In this document: positions 3,825-56,883 of the stretch, one piece after another
Position numbering within the stretch: the stretch's first letter is position 1
Layout of the letters: each line of letters opens with the position of its first letter
NCBI GenBank assembly: GCA_963824995.1
Contig: CAWGRK010000005.1
Span: 1-64,000 of the forward strand
DNA: 64,000 bases
Direction: 5' to 3'
From: an uncultured Actinomycetes bacterium
Lineage (GTDB): Bacteria; Actinomycetota; Acidimicrobiia; Spongiisociales; DATADW01
Program-made: the position numbers and the translations under genes
The notes under the pieces: model-generated
What the model was told of the DNA's origin: nothing
The model's database searches: none
The model's input: only the letters and a program-made list of their open reading frames with translations

Positions 3825-4625
3825 CTATTCCTTGCGCCCGACCACAACGAGACTCTCGAATGGAAACTCGAGACGGCCTTCGTCGGTGACGAATCGAGCA
3901 AACATCTCGTTGGCCTCCCGGCGAATCCGCTCATAGACGTCCTCGGTGATCCGCTCACCGAGTGGTGTGCTTTCGACCTCGGTGGCAACAGCTGCATCGA
4001 TCGAGGGGAATCTGGAGAGACCGGTGTGGGAGGTGACGACCGTCGACGTCAGCCCGGCTTGATCGAACAATGTCCGCAACTCGACTGCGTCGCCGCAGGC
4101 GAAGTAGGTGCTGAGAAGTGACCGTGCCTCGGGTCCGGCGTGTCGCGCCGCCATTTCGACGAAGGGCTTGTATGCCGGCTGGGCATCGAGCGAACTAGGG
4201 ACCAGGACGCCAACCGAGCCCCCGGGCATCGTCACGCGGACCATCTCCCTCAAGGCCGCTGGGCGATCGGGGAAGAACATCAAGGCCATCTGACACAACA
4301 CCGCGTCGAATGAAGCGTTTGGCAGGGGAAGAGCCGCGACATCACCTTGACGCCAGGAGATGTCCGGATCGACCCGGCCGGCGACGGTGAGCATCGCCTC
4401 GTTGAGGTCGAGGCCGATCACATTGCGCGGACCAACGGTGCGGGCAGCAGTTCGGGCGACGATCCCGGTGCCGCATGCCACGTCGAGGACCTGCTGGCCG
4501 GCGGTGAGCATGACGGCTTCGCAGAGCAGCGGAGCCCATTGTGCGAAGAACGCCGGGACAAAGGCGTCCTCATACGCTTCGGCCGCTTCGATCGGGATCT
4601 GGAAGGACTCGGTCGATGTCGTCAT
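3825..4625 (-). CDS. Class I SAM-dependent methyltransferase (UbiE-like)
   Basis: VLDVACGTGIVAR, GLDLNEAML, FDAVLCQMALMFFPD; start at ATG 4625 or 4634, since the ORF-track start overlaps the upstream gene. Confidence 0.88.
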   Translation of the reverse strand: MTTSTESFQIPIEAAEAYEDAFVPAFFAQWAPLLCEAVMLTAGQQVLDVACGTGIVARTAARTVGPRNVIGLDLNEAMLTVAGRVDPDISWRQGDVAALPLPNASFDAVLCQMALMFFPDRPAALREMVRVTMPGGSVGVLVPSSLDAQPAYKPFVEMAARHAGPEARSLLSTYFACGDAVELRTLFDQAGLTSTVVTSHTGLSRFPSIDAAVATEVESTPLGERITEDVYERIRREANEMFARFVTDEGRLEFPFESLVVVGRKE

Positions 4626-4658
4626 GACCGCCATGATCGAGTAGTCGGCAGGTCGCGC

Positions 4659-4678
4659 ACATCGGGCAGATGACCTAT
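4659..4678 (-). promoter_or_regulatory. Putative LuxR-family binding site ATAGGTCATCTGCCCGATGT
   Basis: 14 nt after the LuxR stop and upstream of the methyltransferase; 15/20 identical to the equivalent site at 60212-60231. Confidence 0.5.
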
Positions 4679-4692
4679 ACCGCGTCCGGTTC

Positions 4693-6354
4693 CTACAACC
4701 GGGTTGATATCCCGAGCGTGGCGACGGCATAGGCCGCCGCCTCGCTCCGGTTGCGCAGATTGAGCTTGGCGAGGATGCGGCTGACGTGGTGTGACGCGGT
4801 CTTCCGGCTCACATAGAGCCGCTCGGCAATCTCCCGGTTTGAAAGACCGGCGGCAAGGAGGCGGAGCACCTCATGCTCACGCCTGGTGAGCACCCCGACA
4901 GATTTCGGACCGGACCTCCCGCGCACGCCGGCAGAGCGCAGGAAGGCGGCGGTGCGGTCGGCCTCAGCCGAAGCGCCGAGCTCGTCGAATCCTGCCAGGG
5001 CGACTCGAGCGAGGTCCACCGAGACGTCGGGCTGGGCCGAGGCGAGCGCTTTGGCGAGATCCAGCCTGGCCGCGGCAACCTCAAAGGGGTGCTCGAGGAC
5101 AGACCAGATCCTCATGGCCGTTTCGAGTTGGGCCACCGCGGTCTCTGTGTCGCCCTGGGCCGCACATACCCGGCCTGCCGCGCCCGCTGCCAGAGCTTCG
5201 ATCTTCGAGCCCTTGGCTGCCGCGGCGACCTCATCCAACCTCTGGGCGGCAATGGCAGCATCCGAAAGGTCGTTCGATGAGAGGTGGGCATCGACCAATA
5301 GGTCGAGGGCAACCGCCAGGTGCGAGCGGTGCTCCGCAAGCCGCCGCATCCGCAGCTCGAGTAATCGGCTCGCCCTTTCCCCATCCCCACGGGCAAGCGC
5401 CAGGGCAGCGGTCGACAAAGCGGCCTCGTTCTCCCCTTCCACCGCGTCGCCGGCGTGGGTCAACAGCGACTCGGCCTCCTCGAGCCGCCCTTGTCGCACC
5501 CGAAGCCCGGCCAGACGCGTCAGGCCCCGGCTGTGGAGCCCAGGACTGGAACCCTCCGCAGTCCGCAAGCCGGCAAGAAGCTCCTGCTCCGCTTCGTCCC
5601 ATCGGCCCTTGGCGACCAGCACGCTCCCGTAATAGATGCGGCACTCGGCATAGAGAAAGGGCGACCCGTACTCCTCGACGAAGCCGTCGGCCACCTCGCA
5701 CCACTTCGCGGCGCGCTCGATATCGCTGGCCAATTCGCAGGCGTTGAGCATGTCGCAGCAGGCATAGACCACGGTGGTGAGAGTTGTGCGCTCGCCTCCC
5801 AGCACCGCAGCCATCGCCTCGTCGATCAAGGCGAACCCACCGTCCGTGTCGCCTTTGCCCACCCGGATCAGCCCCAACTGGGTCATGGCGGTCAGTTCCA
5901 GGTCTGGGTCGCCCGAGGCTCTGGCCAACTCGAGCGCTCGTTCCGACAGCTTCTCAGCAGCGCCGAGATCGTTCATGCGATAGGCGCGGGTGACCATGCT
6001 CATTGCATGCAGCGGTCCGGGATCGAGTGGCTCCAACATTCGCTCCGCCCGAGCAACCCACCCGTTGCCGGCGGCATGGTTGGCGTAGTCAGCCTTGTAG
6101 GTGATGCCGAGCCACAGTGCACACTCGACGGCTCGTTCTACGGTTCCGGCCCGCTTGAACAGTGCATATGCCTTGGTGCATTCGGCGACGCTCTCACGGG
6201 TAGCGCCGAGCCACCACAAGGCAAACCCCAACCCGAGATGGCCATCAGCCGAATCTTCGGCTGTTAGGGCTTGCTCGAATGCTGTCCGCGCTTCCTCCCA
6301 GCGACCCGCGCCGAGGGCCGCTTCACCGGTGGCGAGGAGGTCTGCCGATCCCAT
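4693..6354 (-). CDS. TPR-containing LuxR-family transcriptional regulator
   Basis: Helical Ala-rich TPR-like body; C-terminal HTH LTRREHEVLRLLAAGLSNREIAERLYVSRKTASHHVSRILAKL. Confidence 0.9.
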   Translation of the reverse strand: MGSADLLATGEAALGAGRWEEARTAFEQALTAEDSADGHLGLGFALWWLGATRESVAECTKAYALFKRAGTVERAVECALWLGITYKADYANHAAGNGWVARAERMLEPLDPGPLHAMSMVTRAYRMNDLGAAEKLSERALELARASGDPDLELTAMTQLGLIRVGKGDTDGGFALIDEAMAAVLGGERTTLTTVVYACCDMLNACELASDIERAAKWCEVADGFVEEYGSPFLYAECRIYYGSVLVAKGRWDEAEQELLAGLRTAEGSSPGLHSRGLTRLAGLRVRQGRLEEAESLLTHAGDAVEGENEAALSTAALALARGDGERASRLLELRMRRLAEHRSHLAVALDLLVDAHLSSNDLSDAAIAAQRLDEVAAAAKGSKIEALAAGAAGRVCAAQGDTETAVAQLETAMRIWSVLEHPFEVAAARLDLAKALASAQPDVSVDLARVALAGFDELGASAEADRTAAFLRSAGVRGRSGPKSVGVLTRREHEVLRLLAAGLSNREIAERLYVSRKTASHHVSRILAKLNLRNRSEAAAYAVATLGISTRL

Positions 6355-10979: not shown

Positions 10980-12050
10980 CGCTTTACCGCCCTTCCCCTG
11001 ATCCAGTTGTTGAAGAGCACCGCTGCCACCAGCACACCGCCCAACACCACCTGGAACCAGTCGGCATCGACCCCGGTGAGCCTGATCCCCTGGTCGATCA
11101 TGGCGAAGGTGAGCGCACCGAGTGAGGCGCCGACCGCAGAGCCATAGCCGCCGGTGAGCAGGTTTCCGCCGACAACCGCGGCGATTATGGCTCGGAACTC
11201 GAGTTGGGTTCCTCGGAGAGTGTCCGCCCCGGTGAACTGGACCACCTGGAGCAACGCCACCAGGAATGCAGCCAAAGCCGTTGTCATGAACAGGGCCACC
11301 TTGAGCCGGGTGACCGGGACGCCGACGTTGCGGGCTGCGTTTGCGTCGCCCCCCGGCTCCGAAGATCCAGTTGCCCTGGCGTGTCCGGAGCAGCACCCAG
11401 GTGGCGAGGATCGTGAGCAGGATCCACCACAGGATGGTGATGCTGAAGCGTGCCCCGCCGAAGTTGAGTTGACCGGCGAGGAACGGTCGGGCCGACTCGT
11501 ACCCGGCCACCTGGTCGAGATCGCCCAACTGGGTCCTGTTGGTCAAGCTCCGCGTCAAGGCGATGGTCAATCCGCGGAATATGAAGAGGGAGCCGAGGGT
11601 GATGATGAAGGACGGGAGCTTGGTGCTCATCACCAGTGCCCCGTTGAAGGCGCCGATCAGCAGCGATAACACCAGAGCCACCGCCACGGCGGGCCAGAAC
11701 GACCAGCCGAAGCCGCCACCCGCCTCCGCGGTAACCAGCACCATGATCGTCATCCCGGCGAAGCCCACGATCGATCCGATCGACAGGTCGAACTCGCCGG
11801 CGATCATCAACAGAGCGACGGCCACGGCGAGGATCCCGAGAGGTGCAGCCGTGTTGAGCACGGCGGCGGTGGCCTGCCAACTCACGAAGTTGTTGTCGAA
11901 CGCCACCACCGCGAGGAAGACGTAGACGAGGACGACCGCCACGATCGCCCCGACCTCGGGGCGGGCGAGGAGGCGGCTGATCAACCCGACCTGGCGGACC
12001 CGTTCGTCCGCCGGGGGCGCCATAGGTGGTGGCGCGCTGTCTGCGGTCAC
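10976..12050 (-). CDS. Sugar (inositol) ABC transporter permease, frameshifted near 11350
   Basis: GEFDLSIGS and LPSFIITLG in the first frame; [15 protein letters not shown] in ORF 10976-11299; break at a homopolymer run at 11349-11354. Confidence 0.88.
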
Positions 12051-12085
12051 GCTATGCCTCCTCTCCGCACCTCATTCGAATCTAA

Positions 12086-12120
12086 CGGAGGTGGCCCGCC
12101 CCCTAGCGGGCCACCATCCG
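12086..12120 (-). terminator. GC-rich stem-loop after the substrate-binding gene (partial terminator or mRNA stabiliser)
   Basis: GGTGGCCCGC-6 nt-GCGGGCCACC extended by CGGA/TCCG. Confidence 0.65.
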
Positions 12121-12123
12121 AAC

Positions 12124-13185
12124 TCAGCGGAGCCCGGACTCCGAGAAACTGACAACGTCGGCCGCGTTCTCCGCCGTGACCAACTGAGGTCCGGTGAGGA
12201 TCACGCGCTCGACGCTTCCCAGCGGGATCGCCCCGGTTTCCAGGTATTGGGTGAGCAGCACGATCGGCAGGTATCCCTGCAGGTACTGCGCCTGGTCGAT
12301 GGCGAACGCCATGTCGCCATCCGTGATCGCCTGGAGCACCTCAGGAGAGAGGTCGAAGGTGGCGAATGTGATCGTCCCCAGCGACCCGGCCTCGTCGAGC
12401 GCAGCCAGTGTCGGGATTGCACCGGTTGGGCCGAGGGTGAGGATGCCATTGGCATCGGGGTTCGCCTGGAGAGCCGACGCCACCGACTGCTGGGCGCCTG
12501 TCGGATCGTTCAGATCCACCGGGATCACCTCGACCGTTCCGCCCAAGCCCTCGGTGAACCCCTCGCAGCGGAGGTCCAGGGCGACGTTGCCCACCTCTTG
12601 GTTGATGCACAGGGCGTTGGTGACTTCCGCCTCGGCGAATGCAAGTCCGGCAATGAGCCCTGCCTCGCGCTCGGTCTGCCCGACATGCACCAACACTCCA
12701 AGGTCGGCGAACACGTCGCTTCCAGAGTTCATCGAGATCACCGGGATGCCGGCATCGACCGCCGCTTGGATCGAGGGCCCGAGCGCGTCGGCGTCGGGGA
12801 TCGACACGACGAGGCCGTCTGGCTGCCCGGCGACCGCGGTATCGATGATCTGGCTCATGGCGACCATGTCGAACGTGCCTGGCGCCTGGTAGTTGGCAGT
12901 CACGCCCATGTCCTCGGCCCCGGCAGTCACTCCGTTGGCCGCAACCGACCAGAAGGGGTCGGAGGCCTGGCCGTGTGTCACCACCTCGAAGGTGTAGTCG
13001 CGCTGGGTCACCCCACCTCCGGCCTCGGTGCTGCCGGTGCTGGCGGCGGTCGTGTCGGCTCCGCCTACTGCGGTCGTGTCGGTTCCACCGTCACCGGACG
13101 TGGTAGCGGTGCCACCGTCACCACCGCACGCGGCGAGCACCACCAAGATCACCCCTGTCAACGCGAGCCATGACTTCCGTGTCAC
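12124..13185 (-). CDS. Sugar (inositol) ABC transporter substrate-binding lipoprotein
   Basis: Lipobox [37 protein letters not shown]. Confidence 0.92.
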
Positions 13186-13203
13186 ATCCTCCTCCTTCTG
13201 CCG

Positions 13204-14151
13204 TTACACGGGTCTGTTGGGACCCCTTGTCGCGCCCGGTCGCCCGGGCGACACCGTTGTCGAGAACTGGGCCTCCAGCCACCGCATACTCTCGGAGGCA
13301 TCGGCGCCAGGGCCGCTGCCCGGCTCTGGTTCGGTACTGACTACTACATCCTGTTCGAGGACGTACCAACCGTCGTAGCCGGCTTCCTCGAGAGTGGTGA
13401 TCACTGTGGTGAGGTCTACATCACCCCCGCCGAGGGGTCGATAGAGACCCTCGGCCACGGCGCGGTGGTAGCGCAACTCGCCGCGCCGCACCCGTCCTGC
13501 CAAAGCGGCATCGACGTCCTTGAGATGGACGTGGGCGATGCGACTCCTGTGCTCGAGTGCGATCTTCACCGGATCGCCGCCACCGGCGAGCACATGGCCG
13601 GTGTCGAGGCAGAGCAGCACCGCCGATTCAGCCAGCGCCCTTTCGATCTGTTCTGGAGATTCGACCACCGTTCCCAAGTGGGGGTGGAGCGATGCGGTAA
13701 GGCCATGCTTGCCACAGATCTCGGTCGCCTCCTCCAACGCCATACCAAGATGCCGCCACTCGTCGTCGGACAACTCCTCGGATGTCTCGTAGGAATCGTC
13801 GCTACCCGAGGCAGCGAGTACGGCGGTGTCGGCGCCGGCTGCGGCCATCGAGACAACGATTGCCTCCAGAGCAGCGATCTCTTCCCGCCAGCGGTCGGGG
13901 CGGTGCAGGACAATGGGTATGAACCCGCCGACCAGTCGGAGTCCGTGGCGGCGGAGTAACTCTTGCCGGGCGGAGGGATCGGTAGGGAGGAAACCCGCTG
14001 GTCCCAACTCGGTGGCCCGCATTCCGATGGACGCCATCTCGGAGAGCACCCGATCGGGTTCCATCCGGTGACCCCAAGCGGGCACCTCGCACACGCCCCA
14101 AGTTATGGGGGCACCGGCGACGCGATCGTGTGGATCCGTGCTGCCGATCAT
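13204..14151 (-). CDS. iolE: Myo-inosose-2 dehydratase
   Basis: VAGAPITWGVCEVP, ELGPAGF, LHPHLGT, LCLDTGH, HVHLKD, WYVLEQD; ATGA overlap with iolG. Confidence 0.85.
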   Translation of the reverse strand: MIGSTDPHDRVAGAPITWGVCEVPAWGHRMEPDRVLSEMASIGMRATELGPAGFLPTDPSARQELLRRHGLRLVGGFIPIVLHRPDRWREEIAALEAIVVSMAAAGADTAVLAASGSDDSYETSEELSDDEWRHLGMALEEATEICGKHGLTASLHPHLGTVVESPEQIERALAESAVLLCLDTGHVLAGGGDPVKIALEHRSRIAHVHLKDVDAALAGRVRRGELRYHRAVAEGLYRPLGGGDVDLTTVITTLEEAGYDGWYVLEQDVVVSTEPEPGSGPGADASESMRWLEAQFSTTVSPGRPGATRGPNRPV

Positions 14152-23892: not shown

Positions 23893-24882
23893 ATGTCCAC
23901 CCGCATGTGGCGTGAGTCGGTAGTAGGGGTTCCCCGGGTTGACCGTGCCGAGTGGGAGCGACTCGATGTGGTGAGCCGGTGGCTCATTGCCAGCAGGGCT
24001 GCAGTGCTGGTGATGACGCTCATCTCGGCGGCCATCGCCGGGATCCTCGCCTGGCAGGCAGAACTCTTCGACTGGGTCTCGTTTCTCCTGTTGACGGTTG
24101 GCCTGTTGGCGGCGCACGCCGCCAACAACCTCCTCAACGACCTCACCGATCACTGGACCGGCACAGACCGGGACAATTCCTTCCGCACCCAATACGGCTC
24201 GCAGCCCTTGGAGAGCGGATTGATCACGGTGCGGCAGAGCATCCTCTACGCCGCCCTGACCGGCCTGGTCGGCATCGCCATAGGGGTCTGGTTCATCGTC
24301 CAGCGCGGTCCGCTGGTCGCCTTGCTTCTCGGCCTCGGGTCGTTCTTCGTCATCGCATACACCTGGCCGCTCAAGCACATCGGTCTGGGCGAACCGGCGG
24401 TTCTTGTCGTCTGGGGTCCACTCATGGTCGGTGGCGGGTACTTCGTGATCACCGGGGTGTGGTCGTGGGATGTGGTGCTCGCCTCACTCCCTTACGCACT
24501 GGGTGTGACCGCCGTCCTCTTCGGCAAGCACATCGACAAGATCCCCAACGACAGCGAGCGAGGCATCCACACCCTCCCCGTGATCCTCGGTGAAAAGGCC
24601 TCGCGCTGGACGGTGCTGGCGATGATCGCCGCTCAATACCTGCTCGCCATCTACCTGGTGGCGACCGGCTCCCTCCCTTGGCCTGTGCTGGCGGTGATCG
24701 GGGCGACGCCGTTGCTCCGGTTCGTCTGGCCGGTTTTCACCAACCCGAAGCCGGAGGCACCACCTCCCGAGTACCCGAAGGGCGCATGGCCCCTCTGGTA
24801 TGTGAGCATCGCCTTCGTTCACAACCGCCGCTTCGGCGTTCTCTATCTATTGGGTCTGGTAGCCGGTGCCATCCTCTTCTGA
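23893..24882 (+). CDS. menA: UbiA-family prenyltransferase, MenA-like (DHNA polyprenyltransferase)
   Basis: NNLLNDLTDHWTGTD, YTWPLKHIGLGE, KHIDKIPNDSERGIHTLPV; multiple TM segments. Confidence 0.75.
   Translation: MSTRMWRESVVGVPRVDRAEWERLDVVSRWLIASRAAVLVMTLISAAIAGILAWQAELFDWVSFLLLTVGLLAAHAANNLLNDLTDHWTGTDRDNSFRTQYGSQPLESGLITVRQSILYAALTGLVGIAIGVWFIVQRGPLVALLLGLGSFFVIAYTWPLKHIGLGEPAVLVVWGPLMVGGGYFVITGVWSWDVVLASLPYALGVTAVLFGKHIDKIPNDSERGIHTLPVILGEKASRWTVLAMIAAQYLLAIYLVATGSLPWPVLAVIGATPLLRFVWPVFTNPKPEAPPPEYPKGAWPLWYVSIAFVHNRRFGVLYLLGLVAGAILF

Positions 24883-41752: not shown

Positions 41753-41756
<4 letters not shown>
40977..41756 (+). CDS. otsB: Trehalose-6-phosphate phosphatase
   Basis: [31 protein letters not shown] overlap with otsA. 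Confidence 0.93.
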
Positions 41757-45067
<3,311 letters not shown>

Positions 45068-45071
<4 letters not shown>

Positions 45072-46426: not shown

Positions 46427-47446
46427 CTAGCTGTCCCCGTCGGTGTCGCCGAACATCAGGGTCACGCCGAGTACCGAGACGACCTCGGTTGACAGGGTGC
46501 GGTGGAGCGCCCTCGTCGCCTCCTCCGCAGCAGCCAGGTCCTGGGGTGAAGCCTCCTCGAACGAGTCGGGGAGCGCGCCGAGCAGTTCTCCGAGGTCGGT
46601 GAGACGGGTGAGGACGCGCTCATCGGTGGCGGCGAACCCTGCAGCCACCAATGGTGACAGCCCTCCCTCGTAGACCGCGGCGACGCCTTCGATGACCGCC
46701 TCGGCCTCGCGCCCACCGATGCCGGCTGCACCTTGGGCTTCCTCGGGGGCGGGGACGCCTTCATTGGTGCTGCCGGTGGCGATCCCGAGCCGTCTGTCGG
46801 CCACCTCTTGGACGGCGAATATGAGGTCGTTGACCACATCGTCGAGCTCTTCCTGGGTGGAGCGATCCGACGAGGATTCGTCGAGACCTTCCGTCACCGT
46901 CCGTGCCGCCTCCTCCACGAGCGTCGCCGCCGACTCCGCCATCTGGCACCTTCGCCCTGCACCCTCGGCCAGCGCATCGGACCCGGTGCCGAAAAACAGC
47001 CATTCGATGGCGCGCAGACCGCGTTGGTCTGCCCCGAGTTGCCTCATCGCATCGACGGTCACCGGGTCTCCACCTTCCACCAACGCCTCGATTCCCTCGA
47101 TGTCCGGGGCGAAGGCGAAGCTCGCTTCGAGCCGCATCTCGTCGATCAATGCGCTGTGGGCGGTCGTCCGGAGCCACGCCAGCCAGGCGGTCTCCCAGGC
47201 GGAGCGTGCCTCGGTGAGCGCCCGGGGGGAGGCCCTCGAACAGAGCGAGGCGGTCGCCTCGACGAGACCCGTGGCGGCTGCGGTCAACTCGTCGTAGGCG
47301 GGGACGATCACGTCTTGGTTGATCTGGTCGAGAGCCGCCCGGCGATCGGCCTCCCCTTCCGCGGTGGTGGATGGCGCCGAGGAGACGGTCCCGCCGGTAG
47401 TGGCGCATGCGGCTAGTGCGAGGAGGATCACCACCGGGCGTCTCAC
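46427..47446 (-). CDS. Imelysin-family lipoprotein (IPPA-like)
   Basis: Lipobox LAAC; IVPAY, ARSAW, RGLRAIEWLFF (GxxxxE), C-terminal LGVTLMFGDTDGDS; GTGA overlap with the upstream gene. Confidence 0.88.
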   Translation of the reverse strand: MRRPVVILLALAACATTGGTVSSAPSTTAEGEADRRAALDQINQDVIVPAYDELTAAATGLVEATASLCSRASPRALTEARSAWETAWLAWLRTTAHSALIDEMRLEASFAFAPDIEGIEALVEGGDPVTVDAMRQLGADQRGLRAIEWLFFGTGSDALAEGAGRRCQMAESAATLVEEAARTVTEGLDESSSDRSTQEELDDVVNDLIFAVQEVADRRLGIATGSTNEGVPAPEEAQGAAGIGGREAEAVIEGVAAVYEGGLSPLVAAGFAATDERVLTRLTDLGELLGALPDSFEEASPQDLAAAEEATRALHRTLSTEVVSVLGVTLMFGDTDGDS

Positions 47447-48840
47447 AGCGACTCCAGGAATGCGATCAGAGCAGCCCGTTGCTCAGCGGTGAGAGCTTCG
47501 AACCTGGTGCGGGCGCCTTCCGCCTCGCCCCCGTGCCACAGGATCGCCTCCTCGAGGTTGCGCGCCCTCCCGTCGTGGAGGAAGCGGGTATGCCCCGATA
47601 CCGTCTCGGTCAGCCCGATCCCCCAAAGCGGCGGGGTCCTCCATTCAGATCCACTCGCCTCGAACTCGGGTCGCCGGTCGGCCAGACCGTCGCCCATATC
47701 GTGCAGCAGCAGATCTGTGTAAGGATGGATGACCTGCGACGCCAGGCCCTCGATCTCTGAGTCCCCGGTGCGGAGGGTGTCGCGGTGACAGGCCGTGCAG
47801 CCCACCGTGGCGAAGAGGTCTTCTCCCTCCTGGACCGCCGGATCATCGATGTCCCGCCGTGCAGGCACCGCAAGGGTGGACGTGTAGAAGGTCACCCGTT
47901 CCAACTTGTGGTCGTCGAGTTCCGGCTCGCCACCGGTCGGAGCCGCGGCGCAGGCGCGCTCCGTGGGAGTGCAGGGCTGCACGGGGAACATCGAAGAGGT
48001 GATCCCGATGTCGGCCACGAATGCAGAAGCCGCCTGTTGTTCGAGCGTGGGAACGTTGGCCTTCCATCCGAAACGACCGAGCGCCTGCTCTCCGGTAGCG
48101 ATGTTCCAGACCCGATTGGGACGACCGGATACCCCGTCGCCGTCGGCGTCGTCTGGGTCGGCTGCCGAGAGGATCTCCGCTTCGGGCACGGCTTCGAGGA
48201 GCCCACTGCCGTGGATCGGCGGTGCCACCCGAGGAGAGAACATCGTTGCCCTCATCGGTCCGTAGGCCGGGTTGACGATCAGATGGGTCGGGGCGGAGAG
48301 AGTGGCGGTGGAGCCGTCGGGGTAGGTGTGGTCCACCAGCTCCTCGAGGATCCGGATCATCCCCTCGGGAAGGACGCCGTTGATGGCGCGGTCTTGCAGC
48401 TGGCCGCCGTAAACCGGGTCGGGGCGGGGCTCGCCGTGTGGACCTACCCCCGGCACCGATACCCGCACGAGCATGCCCCTCTCAGGATCATCGTCATCCT
48501 CCGGCGGCTTGCCCCGTCCATCGCGGAAGTGGCACGAGGAGCAGGATTGGGCGTTGAACAGGGGTCCGAGCCCATCGCGCCCGTCGGTCGAGGCGGGCGC
48601 CGTCACCCAGTTGTCGTTGAAGAAGTTGTTGCCCACTGCGAATGCGCGTCGCTCCAGAGTCGAGAGCGAAGGGATGGCGAGACCGAACGCATTCGAGGAG
48701 ACATCGAACACGGTCGCATCCCCGCCGGAGCGCGCCTCGACAGGGATGGTGGTGGTCGACGCCGGGCTGGTGTCGGCCGGCTGACCGGTGGTGCATGCAG
48801 CCAGCAACGCAAGCGCGCAAACCTGCGCCCGGCGCCGCAA
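47443..48840 (-). CDS. Di-heme oxidoreductase family (DUF1111) c-type cytochrome lipoprotein
   Basis: Lipobox LAAC; DGLGPLFNAQSCSSCH, DGVSGR, GRFGWKA, CTACH, YTDLLLHDMG, WRTPPLWGIG, LHDGRAR; TTG start inferred. Confidence 0.92.
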   Translation of the reverse strand: MRRRAQVCALALLAACTTGQPADTSPASTTTIPVEARSGGDATVFDVSSNAFGLAIPSLSTLERRAFAVGNNFFNDNWVTAPASTDGRDGLGPLFNAQSCSSCHFRDGRGKPPEDDDDPERGMLVRVSVPGVGPHGEPRPDPVYGGQLQDRAINGVLPEGMIRILEELVDHTYPDGSTATLSAPTHLIVNPAYGPMRATMFSPRVAPPIHGSGLLEAVPEAEILSAADPDDADGDGVSGRPNRVWNIATGEQALGRFGWKANVPTLEQQAASAFVADIGITSSMFPVQPCTPTERACAAAPTGGEPELDDHKLERVTFYTSTLAVPARRDIDDPAVQEGEDLFATVGCTACHRDTLRTGDSEIEGLASQVIHPYTDLLLHDMGDGLADRRPEFEASGSEWRTPPLWGIGLTETVSGHTRFLHDGRARNLEEAILWHGGEAEGARTRFEALTAEQRAALIAFLESL

Positions 48841-48844
48841 CCGG

Positions 48845-49978
48845 TCAGATCCCCAGGTTGATGGTGACCCCCAACGCCTGTGCCGCCCGGGCGATACTCT
48901 CACCCTGCGCCTCCAGCGACTCGATGGCCTCGAGCAACGCCTCCCTCGCCGGGTCGCCGTCCGGAGCCTGGATCATCTGATCGAAGGTCGTCGGAAAGTC
49001 CTCGGCCAGTGAGACGCTGTTGTCGAGTTGTTCGCGGAGAGTGGTGTCGAGTTCGGGGTCGGCCTCGGCGACCAGATCCGCCAGCGAGGGACCGTCTACG
49101 CCTTCGATCTCGGCCAGGTACACCATCCTCACTCCCCGGGCGTTGCCCAACACGTCGGCGTTCGTGTTGTCCGAGAAGCATGAGTGCTCGTCCTCCTGGT
49201 CTCTGGTCTCATAGGCGACCGCCATCCGCTCGCCAGCCAGCTCACCGGCCGACAAGGCCCCGATGCCTCGAAGCATCTTCTGCAACGCGGCTTGGGGATC
49301 GGCCAGGAACTCGGCGCGATATCCGTCCGTTGCCTCCGGGTCCCAGGCGTCGCGCACCGCGGTCAGGTCGCTGATCAACTGCTCGGTGGTCAGTTGGAGG
49401 TACTGGGCCCGGCGATCCGAGTTCTCGGCCTCGACGTAGTCGGTGACCGGCCGGTCCCCGGGATCGTCCTCGCTCAGGTCCTGACCCCAGAGGAGGAACT
49501 CGACGGCGTGCCATCCGGTTGAGATGTTGGTCTCACCGCCCTGCTCATTGGCCGACACCAGGGTGTCGAGGTCGATCTCGGGGAACTCCTCGGTCATGTT
49601 GATGATCCCGGCGTCCGGGTCGCCATCGACGTAGTCGACATATGCCTCGTCCATCGGCCAGGCGTTGATCTGGCCCTCAGGCCCGGACTCGGGATTGTCG
49701 ATCGGCCCGTCGTAGAAACGGAAAGCCTCGGTCGGTCCGTAGTCGTCCCGAGCATCGAGCCAAGCCTGCCGCGCAGCCTCGAGGTTGTCCTCGGTGGGAT
49801 CGGCGATGAATGCGCCGACCGCCTCCTGCATCTCGGTAGCCGAAACCACGGAGGCGTCGTACGCGGCGTAGACCAGGTCGGCGTATGTCTCCGCCACAGC
49901 CTCGGGAGTGGCCTCTTCCGAACCGCTGCAAGCGGCCAAGATGAAAAGCAGCACCGCCACGATCATCGCTGTGCGCAC
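48845..49978 (-). CDS. Iron-regulated imelysin-family lipoprotein (IrpA-like)
   Basis: SD GGAGGG; lipobox LAAC; TEAFRFYDGPID, INAWPMDE, TGWHAVEFLLWGQD (GxHxxE), GELAGERM, DEHSCFSDNT. Confidence 0.92.
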   Translation of the reverse strand: MRTAMIVAVLLFILAACSGSEEATPEAVAETYADLVYAAYDASVVSATEMQEAVGAFIADPTEDNLEAARQAWLDARDDYGPTEAFRFYDGPIDNPESGPEGQINAWPMDEAYVDYVDGDPDAGIINMTEEFPEIDLDTLVSANEQGGETNISTGWHAVEFLLWGQDLSEDDPGDRPVTDYVEAENSDRRAQYLQLTTEQLISDLTAVRDAWDPEATDGYRAEFLADPQAALQKMLRGIGALSAGELAGERMAVAYETRDQEDEHSCFSDNTNADVLGNARGVRMVYLAEIEGVDGPSLADLVAEADPELDTTLREQLDNSVSLAEDFPTTFDQMIQAPDGDPAREALLEAIESLEAQGESIARAAQALGVTINLGI

Positions 49979-50008
49979 CCGTTCCCTCCATGGCCCGATG
50001 GGATCCAC

Positions 50009-50027
50009 TGCTGTTAGGCGAACCTAA
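50009..50027. promoter_or_regulatory. IdeR/DtxR iron box TGCTGTTAGGCGAACCTAA
   Basis: 15/19 match to consensus TTAGGTTAGGCTAACCTAA, in the 66 bp divergent gap between the IrpA-like and HTTM genes. Confidence 0.8.
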
Positions 50028-50044
50028 TATCCACTATCGCCATC

Positions 50045-51400
50045 GTGCAAAACCCTGGAAGCCGAGTGCTGGCGTGGCATCGAGGCCTTGCTCGCCCGGT
50101 TGACGGTGCGTCACTCGCGGTGTGTCGGATCGCCATCGGGTTGGTCGGCGCGGTGTCGATCGGGCGTCTCTTTGCCAACGAATGGATCGAGGCGCTCTAT
50201 GTGACACCGCAGCACCACCTGAGGTTTCCCGGCCTGGCGTGGGTGCCGGTGCCACCTGCTTGGGGGATCAGGACGCTTGCGGTTGTTGCGGGTTGCGCGG
50301 CCCTGGCCGTCGCCATCGGATGGCGTCAACGCCAGTCGGCTGCGGTCTTCGTCGTGTCCTTCACCTGGCTCGAGTTCATCGAGGCGACGACATTCCTCAA
50401 CCACTACTGGCTGGTCACGCTTGTGGCGGCGTTGTTGGTGGTGGTGCCTGCCAACCGGGTCTGGTCGATCGACGCCAGGTCGGGCCGGGCCGGTGGACCC
50501 GTCCCGATCGGGGCGGTTTGGGTGATCCGGCTGCAACTGGCGGCGGTCTACTTCTTCGCCGGGATAGCCAAGCTCCATCCAGACTGGCTTCTCGACGGCG
50601 CGCCGCTGCGACTCTGGCTCCCCGGCCGCGCCGAAGTCCCGCTGATCGGCCCGCTGCTTGCCGCTCCCGGGGCCTCGCTGGCGCTGAGCTGGGCGGGGGT
50701 GCTATTCGACCTTTCAATCGTCTGCTTCCTCCTCGTCAGCCGGACCCGCCTCTGGGCTTGGGTTGCCGTGGTCGGATTCCACGTTGCCACCTGGGCATTG
50801 TTTCCCCGGATCGGGGTTTTCCCCTGGGTGATGATCGCCCTCACCACCATCTTCTTCCCACCCGACTGGCCGCGTCGGCTGTTCCGTCGGTCGGGCGAGA
50901 TTCGTCCTGTTGTACAACAGAGGGCCGGTTGGCCTGGGGTAGCCACTGCGGCTCTTGTGGCCTGGGCTGCGGTGCAAGTGGCTTTGCCGCTCCGCCATCT
51001 CGCCTACCCGGGTGATGCCCGCTGGACGGGCGAGGGTTTTCGCTTCGCCTGGAACGTGCTCGCGGTGGAGAAGGTCGGATGGGTCAGTTTTCGTATCACC
51101 GACCCCGAGGGGCGCACCTGGGTGGATGACGGGTCGGGTATCTACACGCGGTCGCAACTCAGGGTGGCGCCGGGCGAGCCTGACATGATCGCCCAGATGG
51201 CGCTGGCGCTGGCCGAGGCGGAGGGCCCCGACACCGAGGTTCGGGTCGATGCCTTCGTCTCGGTGAACGGCCGCGAAGCCGTGCGGATCATCGACCCCGC
51301 GATCGACCTGGCCTCGCTCCAACCGGGGGCCCGTTCCATCGATTTCGTACTGGCGCAACACGACAGCACGACGGCATCTGCCGAAGGGAGAGGCTCATGA
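50045..51400 (+). CDS. HTTM-domain protein, vitamin K-dependent gamma-glutamyl carboxylase homologue
   Basis: RPVDGASLAVCRI, FLNHYWL, YFFAGIAKLHPDWL, FHVAT...IGVFPWVM, WTGEGFRFAWNVL, PDMIAQ, VDAFVSVNGR. Confidence 0.9.
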   Translation: MQNPGSRVLAWHRGLARPVDGASLAVCRIAIGLVGAVSIGRLFANEWIEALYVTPQHHLRFPGLAWVPVPPAWGIRTLAVVAGCAALAVAIGWRQRQSAAVFVVSFTWLEFIEATTFLNHYWLVTLVAALLVVVPANRVWSIDARSGRAGGPVPIGAVWVIRLQLAAVYFFAGIAKLHPDWLLDGAPLRLWLPGRAEVPLIGPLLAAPGASLALSWAGVLFDLSIVCFLLVSRTRLWAWVAVVGFHVATWALFPRIGVFPWVMIALTTIFFPPDWPRRLFRRSGEIRPVVQQRAGWPGVATAALVAWAAVQVALPLRHLAYPGDARWTGEGFRFAWNVLAVEKVGWVSFRITDPEGRTWVDDGSGIYTRSQLRVAPGEPDMIAQMALALAEAEGPDTEVRVDAFVSVNGREAVRIIDPAIDLASLQPGARSIDFVLAQHDSTTASAEGRGS

Positions 51401-51741
51401 GTGTGGTTCGGATCAACGTGATCGAGATCCCGGAGGGACGGGGCGAAGAACTGGAAAGGCGCTTTGCCAATCGGGCCGGGGCGGTGGATCGAGCACCGGG
51501 TTTTCTCGGCTTCGAGCTGCTTCGACCTACCGATGGCGGGACCAGCTATTTCGTATACACCCGTTGGGAGTCCGACGCTGCCTTCGAGGCCTGGCGTTCG
51601 AGTGCCGCATTCGGCAGCGGGCACGCCCAACACACGGCAGAGGGTCCGGTTGGCACCGGCTCCGACCTGCTCAGCTTCGACGTCGTCATCGAGTCGAAAG
51701 GCGCTCAGCCGGCCAGCGAGGGGATCACAGACTCGCCGTAG
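51397..51741 (+). CDS. mhuD: Heme-degrading monooxygenase, MhuD/IsdG-type ABM fold
   Basis: VVRINVIEIP...ELERRFANRAGAV...PGFLGFELLRP...WESDAAFEAW...GH; Asn/Trp/His pattern of MhuD; ATGA overlap with the HTTM gene. Confidence 0.8.
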   Translation: MSVVRINVIEIPEGRGEELERRFANRAGAVDRAPGFLGFELLRPTDGGTSYFVYTRWESDAAFEAWRSSAAFGSGHAQHTAEGPVGTGSDLLSFDVVIESKGAQPASEGITDSP

Positions 51742-53219: not shown

Positions 53220-56200
53220 ATGGTCGAGCAGTTGAGGATTCGAGCGCTCGGTCCCCCCCACATCACCGTGGGCGATCGGATCGTGACCGATTTGATCCCC
53301 GCCAAGGGCAGAGCCCTCCTGGTCCGCCTCGCGCTCGCCGAAGCGCCCAAGGGCAGGTCTGAGCTGGCCGGGCTGTTGTGGAGCGACTTCGACGAGACTG
53401 CCGCTAGGGGAAATCTGCGCCTCACCCTGAGTCGCCTGCGCAAGGTCCTCCCGGATCATCTCGAAGTCACTCGAGGGACCGTCGGACTGATTGCCGGATC
53501 GGTTTCCACCGACGTTGGGCGGCTCGAGGATCTTGCCGCGGCGCGGAGAGGTCGACGAGCTAGACCCGAGGCTTCCGATCTACGGAGGCGATTTCCTGGG
53601 CGACTTCTCGGTCGCCGGCGCCGAGTTGTTTGACGAGTGGGCATCGCGAAAGCGATCCGAGCTACGCGCCACCGCTCTCGGGTTACTCGACACGATCGTG
53701 ACCGCGGCACGGGCGGCCACCGACACAGATCGCGGCATCGCGGCCGCCCGGAGGATCCTCGAGCTCGAGCCGTGGCACGAAGACGCGCACCGGGCATTGA
53801 TGTGGTTCTTCGCCGCCGCCAACCAGCGAAGCGCCGCACTAGCCCAGTTCGAGACATGCCGCCACGTCCTGGCCGAGGAGCTCGGAGTCGATCCCGACGC
53901 GACCACCATGGCGCTGGCCGATGACATCCAGCGGCGGGTCGGCTTCGACCCTGCGCTCGAGCGGGTTCGAGTGCAGACCGCATCCTCGCTCGTCGGGCGC
54001 GACGATGAGATCGCCCGGCTCCACGCCCTCCTCGACGATCCGTCGTGCCGGATGGTGACCATCGTCGGACCGGGGGGTATTGGAAAGACCGTGCTGGCGC
54101 GGGAGCTTGCGAGTATGCGAGCGACCCGGCATCGCAGCGGTGTGGTCACGGTGTCCTTGGTCGGCACCCGAGCGGCCCACAGCGAGAACGCCTCACCTCT
54201 CGTGATCGCCGGGCTGGCGTCGGCGTTGGGAGTCTCCCTTCGATCGGAGCGGGACCCCCAGGACCTGCTCGCCGAACGACTTCGGTCCGAGGACATGTTG
54301 CTGTTCATCGACAACTTCGAGCAGGTGGTGAGCGCGGCATCGGTCCTGGGGTCGCTCCTGGCCGTTGCTCCCGGCGTCCAGATGCTGGTCACCTCGCGGC
54401 GGCGAGTCGGTGCCGGCCCGGAATGGGTCTTCGAGCTTGGAGGACTTGCCTGTCCGCCGCCCGAGGAAGCTGCCGACCTCCACAGGTATGACGCGGTCAA
54501 GCTCTTCGAAGCAAGGGCGCAGCGCCTCGGGGGGGCGAGCTCAGCCGACCAGGCGACTGTGGGGAGAATCACCCGCCTCGTCGAAGGCGTGCCGCTCTCC
54601 ATCGAGCTGGCGGCCAGGTGGGTTCGAGCCGCCACCCTCGAGCAGATCGAACAGGATCTCGCTCGGGACATCGACATGCTCGCCACCGCCGACCCCGACG
54701 TCGAGCCACGGCATCGCAGCGTCCGGTCGGTGTTCGAGTGGTCATGGTCGCTTCTCGATCCGACCCAGCAGGCGTTGCTGGCTCGGCTGTCCGTGCTCCG
54801 GGGCCGGTTCGATGCAGCCACGGCGGTTGGCGCCGCCGACGCCGACCTCGGCGGCCTAGCTGCGTTGGTTGACCATTCGCTGCTGCAGATGGACGAGAGC
54901 GGTCTCTACTCGTTGCATGAGCAGCTGCGGCAGTTCGCCTCGTCAAAGCTCGCTGCCGATCCCGACACCGATGCCGAGGTCCGCCGTCGCCACGCCGACT
55001 ACTTCCGCGACCGGGCGGTGCTATGGACCGAACTGTCTTCCGAGGGTGGGCCAACCGCCGATGACCTCGACAATCTGCGGGCAGCAACCACCTGGATGAT
55101 CGACCATGGCGATATCAGTGAGCTCGACGCCCACATCGATACGGTGTGGCACGTCTACCGGCTCAGGGGGTGGTACCGGGAGACTGTCGCCACTCTCAGC
55201 GTCGCGGTCGAGCGACCGGACGCCACCGCCAATTTCAAGGCCCGCTGTCATCTTCTCATCGCCGAGGCTTATCGTCAGATAGGCGACCTCGCCGAGGCCA
55301 TAGAGGCGGCGGCTCGCACCCTGAGTGTGCTCGGCAGACAGGTGCCGCGGACGTCGGCCGGTTGGTCTGCCCGGACGTTCGGCGAGACGACGCGCCAGAT
55401 CGGACATCGAGCGCTCTTGGGTAAAACCCTCGCCACCTCGGGGGAGCGCCGGCGGTCAGCTTCGCTCAGAGCCGGCGCTTTGATCCTGATAGGCGAGATG
55501 CTGAACGTCTTGGAGAACAAGAGGCTGGCTACCGCCGGGTTGTGGAGCCTCAACGAAGCGGAGCGCTCCGGGTCGGCTGCGAAAATTGCCCAGGCCGGCA
55601 CCGGGATCGGGTTCGGGATGGCGGTCACCGGATCACATCGCCTGGCCAACTGGTACGCGCAGCGAGGCCTGCGCGCCGCCGAGACGGCAGGTGCCGACGC
55701 CGCCGCCTTTTCCAGGATGGTGGCGGGCACCTTCTTCTTCAACGAGGGCCAATGGGAGCAGGCGCGTGCCGTGCTGCCGCTGGCCATGGAACAGGGCCGT
55801 CAGACCGGGATGCGCCGACTCGAGGATATGTCGCAGCTGGTTTTCGGTTTCGTCGCGATGCACACCGGCTTCCTCGACGATGCCGTGGCCATCGCACGAC
55901 AAATAGCCGAGTCGGGTCGGAATCGGGGCCACCCCGGCACCCACGTGTGGGGCGCGGTTTGCACGGTCGAATGGCTGATCCGAGCGGGCCGCTGGGTGGA
56001 GGCCGAGTCGTGCCTGAGCGACGCGACCGCAGCGGCGGCGAAGGCAGGGCAACGAGTGGACACCGCCCGGGTGCTTGCTGCTGCGGCCCGGATCAACCTC
56101 CGTCACGGGGACTTCCGAGGAACATGGGCAGCCATCGAGGGAGCCGAGGCCGCGCTGGGGGGCCAGGCGGCGCTCGTTCCTTGGGGACTGGAGGCCCACG

Positions 56201-56883
56201 CTGGGATCGCCGAGGTGGCGCTGGAACTGTTTGACGCCGGACTGCCCCCAGGGGTCACCGACGCTCAAGCGGAACGAGCCGTGAAACGCGGCCTGAGTCT
56301 GCTGCGTGGCTTCGTCAAAGGGGTTCCCATCGGCCGGCCCCGGCTCCAACTGGTCAGAGCTGGTTACGCAGCCCATCGAGGACGGCGAAGGACGGCCATG
56401 CGGTGGTGGGTATCGGCGGCCACGGAGGCAGCCGGCATGGGCATGCCTTGGGAAGAGGCGCGCGCCCACCAACGCCTTGCAGAGGCGCTCGGTGTTGACG
56501 AGCGCTCAACGCTGGGACTCGACCGGGGCGGTCACAAGCGCCGAGCGGTGGATCTGCTGGCTTCGATGGGTGTGGTCTCGCCAGAAGAGGACGCTCGTGC
56601 TGTCAGCGGATTCGCTGGCGGGAGTGCCGGGGGGCAACCGATCGCAGCGGGTTCGGAGGGTATGAGACCCATCCGGATAGATGATCCCGGCTCTCTCAGC
56701 GGTGTTGCGGAAAACCGAGGTCCACGCCGCGGTGGATCGGGTCGGGCCAGCGGCCGATCACCACCTTTGGTCTGCTGTAGAAGCGGACCCCGTCGGGGCC
56801 GTATATGGCGTGATCGCCGAAGATCGAGTTCTTCCAACCGCCGAACGAGTAGAAGCTCAACGGGACCGGTATCGGGACGTTGA
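53220..56883 (+). CDS. AfsR/SARP-type regulator (wHTH-BTAD-NB-ARC ATPase-TPR), frameshifted near 53540
   Basis: IRALGPP, LAGLLWSD..ARGNLRLTLSRLRK; BTAD LELEPWHEDAHRALM..ELGVDP; GPGGIGKT, IDNFE, TSRR, GVPLSIELAA; 3' end overlaps mmsA by 188 nt and is uncertain. Confidence 0.85.

Follow-up and report, generated by a model that had tools for sequence, protein, structure and literature searches.

What a homologue of the animal vitamin K-dependent γ-glutamyl carboxylase (GGCX) does in a bacterial iron cassette is the question raised by positions 46427-51741 of the stretch considered here, the first 64,000 nucleotides (the window) of contig CAWGRK010000005.1 of an uncultured Actinomycetes bacterium of the class Acidimicrobiia (assembly GCA_963824995.1; genome G000 below, 2.9 Mb, 17 contigs, 85% complete). 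The region is best explained as a putative iron-starvation locus in which one operator would govern two divergent units. The comparisons reported here show that the conserved core, found in at least seven phyla, consists of an IPPA-type imelysin with an F-x-D-x-D-G-D tail and a GGCX orthologue, an HTTM protein. It is very probable that this pair constitutes a functional and physically interacting module of an iron-regulated system. Covalent carboxylation of the imelysin tail is proposed more tentatively, as something that may happen but that we rate somewhat short of probable. Five genes, namely three for minus-strand lipoproteins and two on the plus strand, are confirmed by open reading frame (ORF) calls and Pfam, and the features needed for the discussion are as follows.

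46427-47446, minus strand: P0001, IPPA-type imelysin lipoprotein (IMEb), 339 amino acids (aa); PF09375, 85.7 bits
46430-46453, minus strand: codons of the C-terminal acidic tail FGDTDGDS of IMEb, from the translation
47443-48840 (longest ORF to 48903), minus strand: P0002, DHOR/DUF1111 di-haem lipoprotein; PF06537, 316 bits
48845-49978 (longest ORF to 50008), minus strand: P0003, IrpA/LruB-type imelysin lipoprotein (IMEa); PF09375, 262 bits
50012-50029, unstranded: putative shared operator TGTTAGGCGAACCTAATA in the 66-bp divergent gap, from the footprint across 15 divergent Acidimicrobiia loci
50045-51400, plus strand: P0004, GGCX orthologue (HTTM plus lumenal domain), 451 aa; PF05090, 242.8 bits, and PF22777, 95.1 bits
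50399-50404, plus strand: N119-H120 of P0004, aligned to human N159-H160, from the alignment and translation
50570-50572, plus strand: K176 of P0004, aligned to the human catalytic base K218, from the alignment and translation
51397-51741, plus strand: P0005, MhuD/IsdG-type heme-degrading monooxygenase homologue, 114 aa; PF03992 (ABM), 78.1 bits

The carboxylase orthologue

The PF05090 and PF22777 scores of P0004 both exceed the Pfam cut-off of 27.7. Residues 15-424 of the protein align to human GGCX with an E-value of 4e-34, the alignment ending at about human residue 490. The AlphaFold2 (AF2) model of P0004 has a predicted local distance difference test (pLDDT) value of 85.2, and a Foldseek search with this model returned 16 matches at E ≤ 0.001, all of them human GGCX, while the next match has an E-value of 0.2. 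The likeness to GGCX drawn earlier from the letters of the DNA alone (the sequence-only reading), and the structural comparison proposed along with it, are thus borne out by a fold that matches GGCX with TMq values of 0.80-0.82, the corresponding TMt values being only 0.52-0.58.

The GGCX-like motifs named in that reading (LNHY, YFFAGIAKL, WTGEGFRFAW, and VSVNGR) are all present in P0004, and the lysine of AGIAKL does fall at the position of the animal catalytic base. Human N159, H160, K218, W223, D263, F286, and F299 align to N119, H120, K176, W181, D222, F245, and F259 of P0004, which are invariant across 20 relatives. According to PMC12647623, which treats the human active site, K218 is the base and W223 its support, D263 and F286 are ligands of the quinone, F299 is the CO2-stacking residue, and N159 and H160 are ligands of the substrate carboxylate. 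The same source has pointed out, citing MloH, that bacterial GGCX orthologues keep these catalytic residues, and the conservation as such is therefore not new.

Both the alignment and the fold comparison indicate that P0004 has neither the propeptide clamp B nor the C-terminal domain found in human GGCX. The protein ends where the human clamp B starts, so that only the three-stranded "clamp A" sheet is present. P0004 is a full GGCX orthologue of the HTTM-plus-lumenal type and a candidate carboxylase or epoxidase. The nearest database relatives of P0004 carry Acidimicrobiia or Acidimicrobiales names. A second Acidimicrobiia subgroup of HTTM-plus-lumenal proteins, of about 500-545 aa, was also seen (L176, G262:C208, 6922-8412, and L177, G196:C97, 7128-8762), its genes adjoining a LuxR-type regulator and large ORFs that match nothing in Pfam.

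Pairing with an imelysin

A scan of one genome per species returned at least 569 stretches that encode relatives of P0004, and the best 80 were taken with 10-kb flanks. As labeled from the record titles, these comprise 27 loci from Acidimicrobiia, 42 from Chloroflexota, 2 from Acidobacteriota, 1 from Myxococcota, 4 from Bacteroidota, 2 from Rhodothermota, and 2 from Verrucomicrobiota; the surveyed kin are not independent of each other. An imelysin ORF lies within 500 bp of the HTTM gene in 73 of the 80 loci by phmmer (E ≤ 1e-6), a number that rises to 76 when Pfam adds L082, L088, and L090. In three others the nearest imelysin is found at 5.2 kb (L048), 1.5 kb (L058), and 1.0 kb (L063), and L020 is a contig of 1.9 kb. 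The linkage between HTTM and imelysin, for which the sequence-only reading had suggested a survey across genomes, thus recurs in seven phyla.

The pair occurs in several arrangements. The divergent order of the present locus is found in 15 Acidimicrobiia loci, and a co-directional operon with the order imelysin-DHOR-imelysin-HTTM in 11 Acidimicrobiia, 13 Chloroflexota, 2 Acidobacteriota, and 1 Myxococcota loci, while 29 Chloroflexota loci are convergent. All six loci from Bacteroidota and Rhodothermota encode a DUF4856 protein, an imelysin, the HTTM protein, and a TonB-dependent receptor, without a DHOR and without a second imelysin, and the two Verrucomicrobiota contigs have at least an imelysin followed by HTTM. 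That the linkage is kept through three gene orders speaks for selection to hold the two genes close together.

In the co-directional and convergent orders, the imelysin adjoining HTTM is of the GxxxxE/IPPA type. In the divergent order this imelysin is the last gene of the opposite operon, and IMEa is the gene nearest to HTTM. Since the forms found in Bacteroidota, Rhodothermota, and Verrucomicrobiota lack the IrpA-type imelysin, the constant neighbor of HTTM, as judged from these gene orders, is the DGD-tailed IPPA-type imelysin and not the acidic IrpA-type one.

A census of 301 Acidimicrobiia genomes gives a similar picture. Full-length HTTM orthologues are encoded in 13 of them, an IPPA-type imelysin in 12, and both in 10; in each of these 10 the two genes are adjacent and the tail is present, in G295 in a shifted frame. 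The sole Acidimicrobiia cassette in a genome without any HTTM-family gene (G009, 100% complete) has a tail-less imelysin. It can be mentioned here that some cassette genes have broken frames, such as IMEb in G295 (C1:2007789-2008827) and DHOR in G018, which contains a TGA (C8:539722-541065), while HTTM and DHOR of G003:C29 are in pieces; these breaks are either sequencing errors or decay.

The acidic tail of the partner

A profile of 27 IMEb relatives matches IPPA (3pf0) with an E-value of 2e-31. In the alignment of these 27 partners, drawn from five phyla, six columns are invariant, and three of the six are the terminal D-G-D (D336, G337, and D338 of IMEb). The tail consensus, F-x-D-x-D-G-D, stands at the very end of the protein or at most four residues from it. 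D(G/N)D is the ending of 76 of the 78 IPPA-type ORFs, which were collected from 77 loci of the set of 80; the exceptions are an ORF cut by a contig end and the one of L027.

The tail is likely to be flexible. The AF2 model of IMEb (pLDDT 89.5) has its last helix at residues 301-326, and residues 327-339 are coil, the last block of which has a mean pLDDT of 62. This is in line with the IPPA crystal, in which the final six residues are disordered (Xu et al. 2011, PMC3143127).

Tail and HTTM also go together outside the survey. Among Myxococcota, sampled like the other groups at one genome per species, matches were found in 75 of 201 genomes, and in the best 30 loci the acidic tail is present in 22 imelysins (19 ending in DGD and 3 in EGDND). 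HTTM begins within a few bases of the imelysin stop in 20 of these 22; of the other two, one has HTTM 2.3 kb further on with a TonB-receptor gene in between, and one lies at a contig end. None of the eight tail-less imelysins has HTTM, the next gene being DHOR or nothing recognizable. Bacteroidota, with matches in 46 of 201 genomes, behave in the same way in the best 30 loci: 27 imelysins carry the tail, and HTTM immediately follows 26 of these. In the exception (G694), a glycoside hydrolase stands next to the tailed imelysin and an HTTM orthologue occurs unlinked in the genome. The three tail-less imelysins lack an adjoining HTTM and are followed by DHOR in two cases and by a canonical heme oxygenase in one. 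Tailed proteins rank first in these samples because the search profile includes the tail.

Two variants were noted in the course of this comparison. In one Bacteroidota locus (L233, G562:C15, 857-1453), the canonical heme oxygenase (PF01126) behind the tail-less imelysin parallels the MhuD-like gene found behind HTTM in the present locus. In a variant Myxococcota module (L202, L203, L205, and L245), the imelysin ends in EGDND or EGDGDND and HTTM overlaps its stop; L202, L203, and L205 have no DHOR upstream, and L245 has an ORF of 774 aa after HTTM.

Predicted complex of HTTM and IMEb

The complex of HTTM (with an alignment of 20 sequences) and mature IMEb (residues 14-339, with an alignment of 27) was predicted in three runs. 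These gave scores of 0.79, 0.80, and 0.79 and passed, the best of three controls being at 0.00. The mark used is reached by 116 of 157 solved complexes and by 2 of 215 mismatched pairs, counts that apply only roughly here because custom alignments were used. The runs have at least 73% of their contacts in common, and the pLDDT of the partner is at least 81.

The confident core of the predicted interface is formed by residues 312-329 of the imelysin, that is, the last helix and the first coil residues, which would be packed against residues 342-348, 357-360, and 404-412 of HTTM, the last of these being the VSVNGR strand. Further interface residues include 118, 189-197, and 373 of HTTM and 337 of the imelysin. 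The HTTM strands involved are the counterpart of the human clamp A, the sheet that binds the propeptide in human GGCX, and L118 adjoins N119 and H120. In human GGCX, a linker of 7-8 residues separates the propeptide from the first Glu; the spacing from T329 of IMEb to D336 and D338 is 7-9 residues. The model supports, rather than shows, the binding of IMEb by HTTM.

Operator and putative iron response

The gap between the two divergent units contains, at 50009-50027, a 15/19 match to the IdeR/DtxR consensus, a 19-mer. No other match in the 2.9-Mb genome scores as high, the next being four at 14/19. This agrees in score with the sequence-only reading, which had described the site as an IdeR/DtxR box. 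The conserved footprint is, instead, an even 7-4-7 palindrome of 18 bp (50012-50029) with IdeR-like TTAGG/CCTAA arms, and with a symmetry of 7-4-7 and not 9-1-9, the operator departs from a canonical IdeR box. A canonical IdeR regulon was also considered and rejected, as the genome scan with the 19-mer gave the single 15/19 site and otherwise only GC-rich matches at 13-14/19.

The palindrome TGTTAGG-N4-CCTAACA stands between imelysin and HTTM in all 15 divergent Acidimicrobiia loci. A weight matrix derived from 12 of these sites was applied to the 11 co-directional Acidimicrobiia loci, none of which had contributed to it, and in 9 of them the motif precedes the first gene of the cassette by up to about 110 bp (present in L027, L030, L031, L033, L034, L060, L064, L067, and L092, the position relative to the true start being uncertain in L064; not seen in L028 and L053). 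Three of the co-directional loci have two sites. Elsewhere in the 27 Acidimicrobiia loci the matrix gives only two hits of at least 14 bits, and in Chloroflexota the operator is near the cassette in at most 5 of 42 loci. Extra copies outside the cassette promoter were seen in L030 (11340-11357, just after HTTM) and in L034 (589-606, beside small ORFs without Pfam matches). From this conservation, the operator is judged to be real and conserved, with iron-box arms.

When G000 is scanned with the same matrix, 50012-50029 is the sole strong site (26.0 bits). A regulon could not be defined from the family matrix in this genome, the next site, C1:138885, having 13.8 bits and preceding a gene for a solute-binding protein without an iron-related NCBIfam assignment. 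G000 encodes two DtxR-family proteins, one nearer to DtxR and one nearer to MntR, both under the equivalog cut-offs, and one Fur-family protein. The DtxR-family genes are located in the regions of C16:20490 and C10:236378.

That the operator would respond to iron is what we infer, and the regulation of related cassettes is consistent with it. In Riemerella anatipestifer, the adjacent genes RAYM_09779-09794 encode a TonB-dependent receptor, a vitamin K-dependent gamma-carboxylase, an imelysin, and a hypothetical protein; they are up 2.11-, 2.64-, 3.07-, and 2.41-fold in the iron-restricted wild type and are listed as putative Fur targets (PMC5609570, Table 4). The iron regulation assumed in the sequence-only reading therefore has a counterpart in a homologous gene order. 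A Leptospira operon with LruB, a cytochrome, and an imelysin, located beside a TonB receptor, is likewise induced by peroxide and by iron limitation, according to a preprint that names no carboxylase.

Proposed mechanism and alternatives

The mechanism that we propose starts with the docking of the last imelysin helix on the three-stranded lumenal sheet of HTTM, whose counterpart in human GGCX is where the propeptide binds. Starting 7-9 residues beyond the helix, the flexible tail would then reach the active site on the outer side of the membrane, where HTTM would use a reduced naphthoquinone, O2, and CO2/bicarbonate to carboxylate a tail Asp. The product would be a malonate-like chelating group, similar to γ-carboxyglutamate (Gla), which could sharpen the metal capture of the cassette. 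We infer real binding, entry of the tail into the pocket, carboxylation of Asp, and the identity of the quinol. The scheme as a whole has about the same tentative standing as the carboxylation itself, that is, a candidate whose chances fall a little below the halfway point. A precedent for the chemistry is MloH, a bacterial GGCX orthologue that carboxylates an aspartyl unit in malonomycin biosynthesis (Law et al. 2018, as cited in PMC12647623); the statement of the sequence-only reading that bacterial homologues have no assigned substrate is thus outdated. The more general claim, that this subfamily comprises true protein carboxylases whose substrate is the D-x-D-G-D tail and which would convert Asp to beta-carboxy-aspartate on the outer membrane face for iron capture, we consider doubtful.

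The supply of quinol deserves separate attention. The vitamin K epoxide reductase VKOR (PF07884) was found in none of six carrier genomes, namely G000 and five others that are 95-98% complete. For MenB and MenD, nothing scores above the cut-off in five same-genus genomes, the scores being far below it (the same-genus genomes searched for the quinone pathway are 72-93% complete). MqnA was not found in G000, in which an MqnC-like radical-SAM gene falls below the cut-off, and the MenA-like prenyltransferases of the genus are just under theirs. The menaquinol dependence assumed in the sequence-only reading finds no recognized menaquinone pathway in the genus to rest on. A modification made once per protein would need little quinol and no recycling. 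In G039, which has the same four-gene operon, MenB and MenA genes stand side by side. Two UbiA-family prenyltransferases of G000 can be noted, at 24037-24753 (plus strand) of the window and at C9:192510-193337, with 72 and 83 bits, respectively, relative to the MenA cut-off of 102.

These quinol results weigh against the proposed mechanism, and so do several other observations. Human Y395, grouped with the ligands of the substrate carboxylate in PMC12647623, corresponds to F332 in P0004 (Tyr in the family consensus), and R406 and H440, which handle Gla in processive carboxylation according to the same passages, have no clear counterparts in P0004. G337 is the only tail residue in the confident interface, and as the prediction output contains no coordinates, the entry of Asp into the pocket is a step that we add to the model. 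The Psychrobacter IPPA (3pf0) ends in the same ...TDGD tail, so that the tail may act independently of HTTM, for example by binding a metal directly. The tail-less imelysins may be other paralogues, in which case the association between tail and HTTM is partly an association of subfamilies. The HTTM-plus-lumenal paralogues of G262 and G196 have no imelysin nearby, and a search for longer relatives found no fused HTTM-imelysin protein, which is weak evidence, its sole hit being a fusion of HTTM with MORN_2. Lastly, a Leptospira orthologue has been reported to act as an epoxidase only.

It is useful to compare the proposed carboxylation with other roles for the pair. One that dispenses with carboxylation is a non-covalent redox hand-off, in which Fe(III) bound to the tail is presented at the quinol site of HTTM; the latter would be a quinol:Fe(III) reductase or some other quinol-linked redox partner on the outer face. 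This scheme explains the pairing and the predicted complex equally well, needs no VKOR, in keeping with the result for the six carrier genomes, and would fit the presence of the tail in cassettes without HTTM. It leaves unexplained, however, why the CO2-stacking F259 and the carboxylate ligands N119 and H120 are invariant, and we know of no GGCX-family member that reduces metals, so that we regard it as unlikely, though worth keeping in view. A comparably low probability is given to the imelysin being a subunit that replaces clamp B and the C-terminal domain, the resulting holoenzyme acting on a third molecule, which could be another protein, a peptide, a lipid, or the quinone itself (for instance in epoxidase-only chemistry). 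Such a role would account for the bacterial HTTM protein ending at the start of the human clamp B, and a preprint predicts an analogous complex with an accessory protein for another HTTM subfamily (DUF5819). The Leptospira orthologue, reported to be an epoxidase only, would fit as well. Against it, the various forms of the module share no third conserved gene, and the best-conserved part of the partner is the flexible terminal tail rather than a surface patch.

The two roles for HTTM favored in the sequence-only reading fare worse, as forms of the module exist without the proteins that they require. A γ-carboxylation of Glu residues in the acidic IrpA-type imelysin is suggested by the composition of IMEa, in which D and E make up 21.2% of the residues, and by its position, IMEa belonging to this regulated locus and being the closest gene to HTTM in divergent arrangements. 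This protein type is missing from Bacteroidota, Rhodothermota, and Verrucomicrobiota, where HTTM keeps only the DGD-tailed imelysin, and the co-directional or convergent neighbor is always of the IMEb type; we hold IMEa to be an improbable target. Even less credit can be given to a quinol chemistry of HTTM that feeds electrons to the di-haem DHOR. A DHOR is present in 66 of the 80 loci as counted by script, or 67 with L074, which was missed by an overlap filter, but HTTM-imelysin pairs without it occur in all eight Bacteroidota, Rhodothermota, and Verrucomicrobiota loci and in four others of the 80, and DHOR cassettes without HTTM occur in G007, G009, and G038. The least probable option of all, to the point of being barely credible, is that the adjacency is devoid of functional meaning and HTTM is an unrelated membrane protein, since the linkage survives three gene orders and seven phyla, the operator is shared, and the Riemerella genes are co-induced.

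Relation to known systems and significance

Like P0004, human GGCX combines HTTM and lumenal domains and has the seven catalytic-site residues, and, like the predicted module, it receives a partner helix on a clamp-A-like sheet with a short linker to the acidic residues. The differences are considerable. The human enzyme has 758 residues, compared to 451 in P0004, which is without clamp B and the C-terminal domain and has Phe in place of Y395, and no VKOR was found in the carrier genomes. The human target is a Glu that follows an N-terminal propeptide, whereas the candidate target here is an Asp in the C-terminal tail of a lipoprotein, and the P0004 module is bacterial and in a putatively iron-regulated setting. 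MloH resembles P0004 as a bacterial GGCX orthologue with an assigned aspartyl carboxylation; it belongs to an antibiotic cluster, its substrate is a small-molecule intermediate of polyketide-peptide type, and it is not known to have an imelysin partner or to lie in an iron cassette.

The lipoprotein operon has closer relatives. PA4370-PA4373 of P. aeruginosa and VC1264-VC1266 of V. cholerae contain the same trio of GxHxxE imelysin, DUF1111 protein, and GxxxxE imelysin, and are Fur-regulated (PMC3143127). The present locus has the PA4370-4372 type of cassette, with a GxHxxE imelysin (GWHAVE in P0003), a DUF1111 protein with two CxxCH motifs, and a GxxxxE imelysin (GLRAIE in P0001) in one operon; Xu et al. 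(2011, PMC3143127) define the IPPA/PA4372 family by the GxxxxE variant. That paper mentions no HTTM protein or carboxylase. In the Acidimicrobiia cassette, by comparison, the GGCX orthologue is a near-constant addition, and the host is a monoderm with lipoproteins. The Riemerella genes, likened to the present ones from an annotation table, have the gene order of the six Bacteroidota and Rhodothermota loci and represent an outer-membrane, DHOR-less form; the table (PMC5609570) does not draw a functional link between them. EfeUOB is similar in combining the imelysin-domain protein EfeO with a haem enzyme and a membrane protein for iron uptake (PMC3143127). In EfeUOB, the Ftr1-type permease EfeU serves as the membrane part and EfeB as the haem enzyme, and P0003 matches the EfeO model with an E-value of only 7.5e-4, far under the cut-off.

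The HTTM/GGCX and imelysin families, the imelysin trio, and the residue conservation in bacterial GGCX orthologues are thus already known. A full-text literature search found no paper that combines HTTM with imelysin, and imelysin was found together with vitamin K only in the paper with the Riemerella table and in a proteomics study of Prevotella. Within the reach of such searches, what appears to be new is that this HTTM subfamily is almost constantly paired with a DGD-tailed imelysin. The same applies to the tail as the most conserved feature of the partner, to the predicted propeptide-like docking, and to the Acidimicrobiia operator.

Bacterial GGCX orthologues are widespread and keep the catalytic residues, with a substrate or physiological role known only for MloH, and the imelysin/DUF1111 cassettes under iron control, described in 2011 or earlier, have no known mechanism. 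The comparative data point to one short, invariant, flexible tail and to one enzyme as its likely modifier, and the pairing would give the bacterial GGCX family a testable protein partner. If the proposal is correct, it would be the first vitamin K-type protein carboxylation outside animals and a bacterial counterpart of the Gla domain, it would explain why bacteria have HTTM proteins and why a widespread iron cassette contains a second imelysin, and the module would be a simple bacterial model of substrate recognition by GGCX. Carboxylation of the tail would also mean that γ-carboxylation-type chemistry is an ancient metal-chelation device and not an animal invention.

Remaining features of the locus and its surroundings

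The left arm is composed as the sequence-only reading described it, with LAAC lipoboxes in P0001, P0002, and P0003 and the haem motifs CSSCH and CTACH at residues 121 and 369 of the di-haem protein P0002. P0003 matches the NCBIfam LruB model with an E-value of 5.7e-47, which is under the cut-off of that model. The ORF calls are mechanical, and over-extension is frequent in GC-rich DNA such as that of the window (0.63-0.68). The likely start of P0003 is GTG 49978, a position at which same-genus orthologues have ATG, and the 66-bp gap given in the earlier description holds with this start. P0002 likely starts at TTG 48840, 4 nucleotides past the IMEa stop, and the GTG start of P0001 at 47446 overlaps the DHOR stop as GTGA; the junctions in the minus-strand operon are thus 4 nucleotides apart or overlapping.

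On the plus strand, the stop of P0004 overlaps the start of P0005 as ATGA, as had been noted and as follows from the coordinates. P0005 matches MhuD of M. tuberculosis (3hx9) with an E-value of 1.3e-32, and its N7, W66, and H76 align to N7, W66, and H75 of MhuD, the catalytic positions of that enzyme. In spite of this likeness to MhuD/IsdG, P0005 remains under the NCBIfam equivalog cut-offs (top score 41.9 bits, relative to the cut-off of 130 of the HmuQ model). An ABM gene of the MhuD-like kind is directly downstream of HTTM only in L013, L015, and L019 among the 80 loci. These are three of the four same-genus loci, the fourth, L014, having disturbed ORF calls. The coupling to a heme oxygenase read from the locus thus stands for the overlap seen here, with the position after HTTM being confined to the genus, and the MhuD-like gene was rejected as a member of the conserved system.

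The flanking genes appear to be unrelated to the cassette; they encode a thioesterase, an ACT protein, a split TreS/maltokinase, a luciferase-like monooxygenase, and a BTAD/NB-ARC regulator. The trehalose-synthase/maltokinase-type gene at 41753-45071 (minus strand) is split into two overlapping ORFs, 44061-45071 and 41753-44071, and its alpha-amylase catalytic domain breaks at profile position 318, due to a frameshift, a pseudogene, or an assembly error. The BTAD/NB-ARC/TPR regulator, of 1130 aa, is located at 53491-56883 (plus strand), about 1.7 kb downstream of the locus, with no link to the cassette seen. In G039, the four-gene operon (L121, G039:C18) is accompanied by a divergent gene for a siderophore-type periplasmic binding protein (4601-5530) and, downstream, by genes for a MerR regulator and a heavy-metal P-type ATPase (11144-13906).

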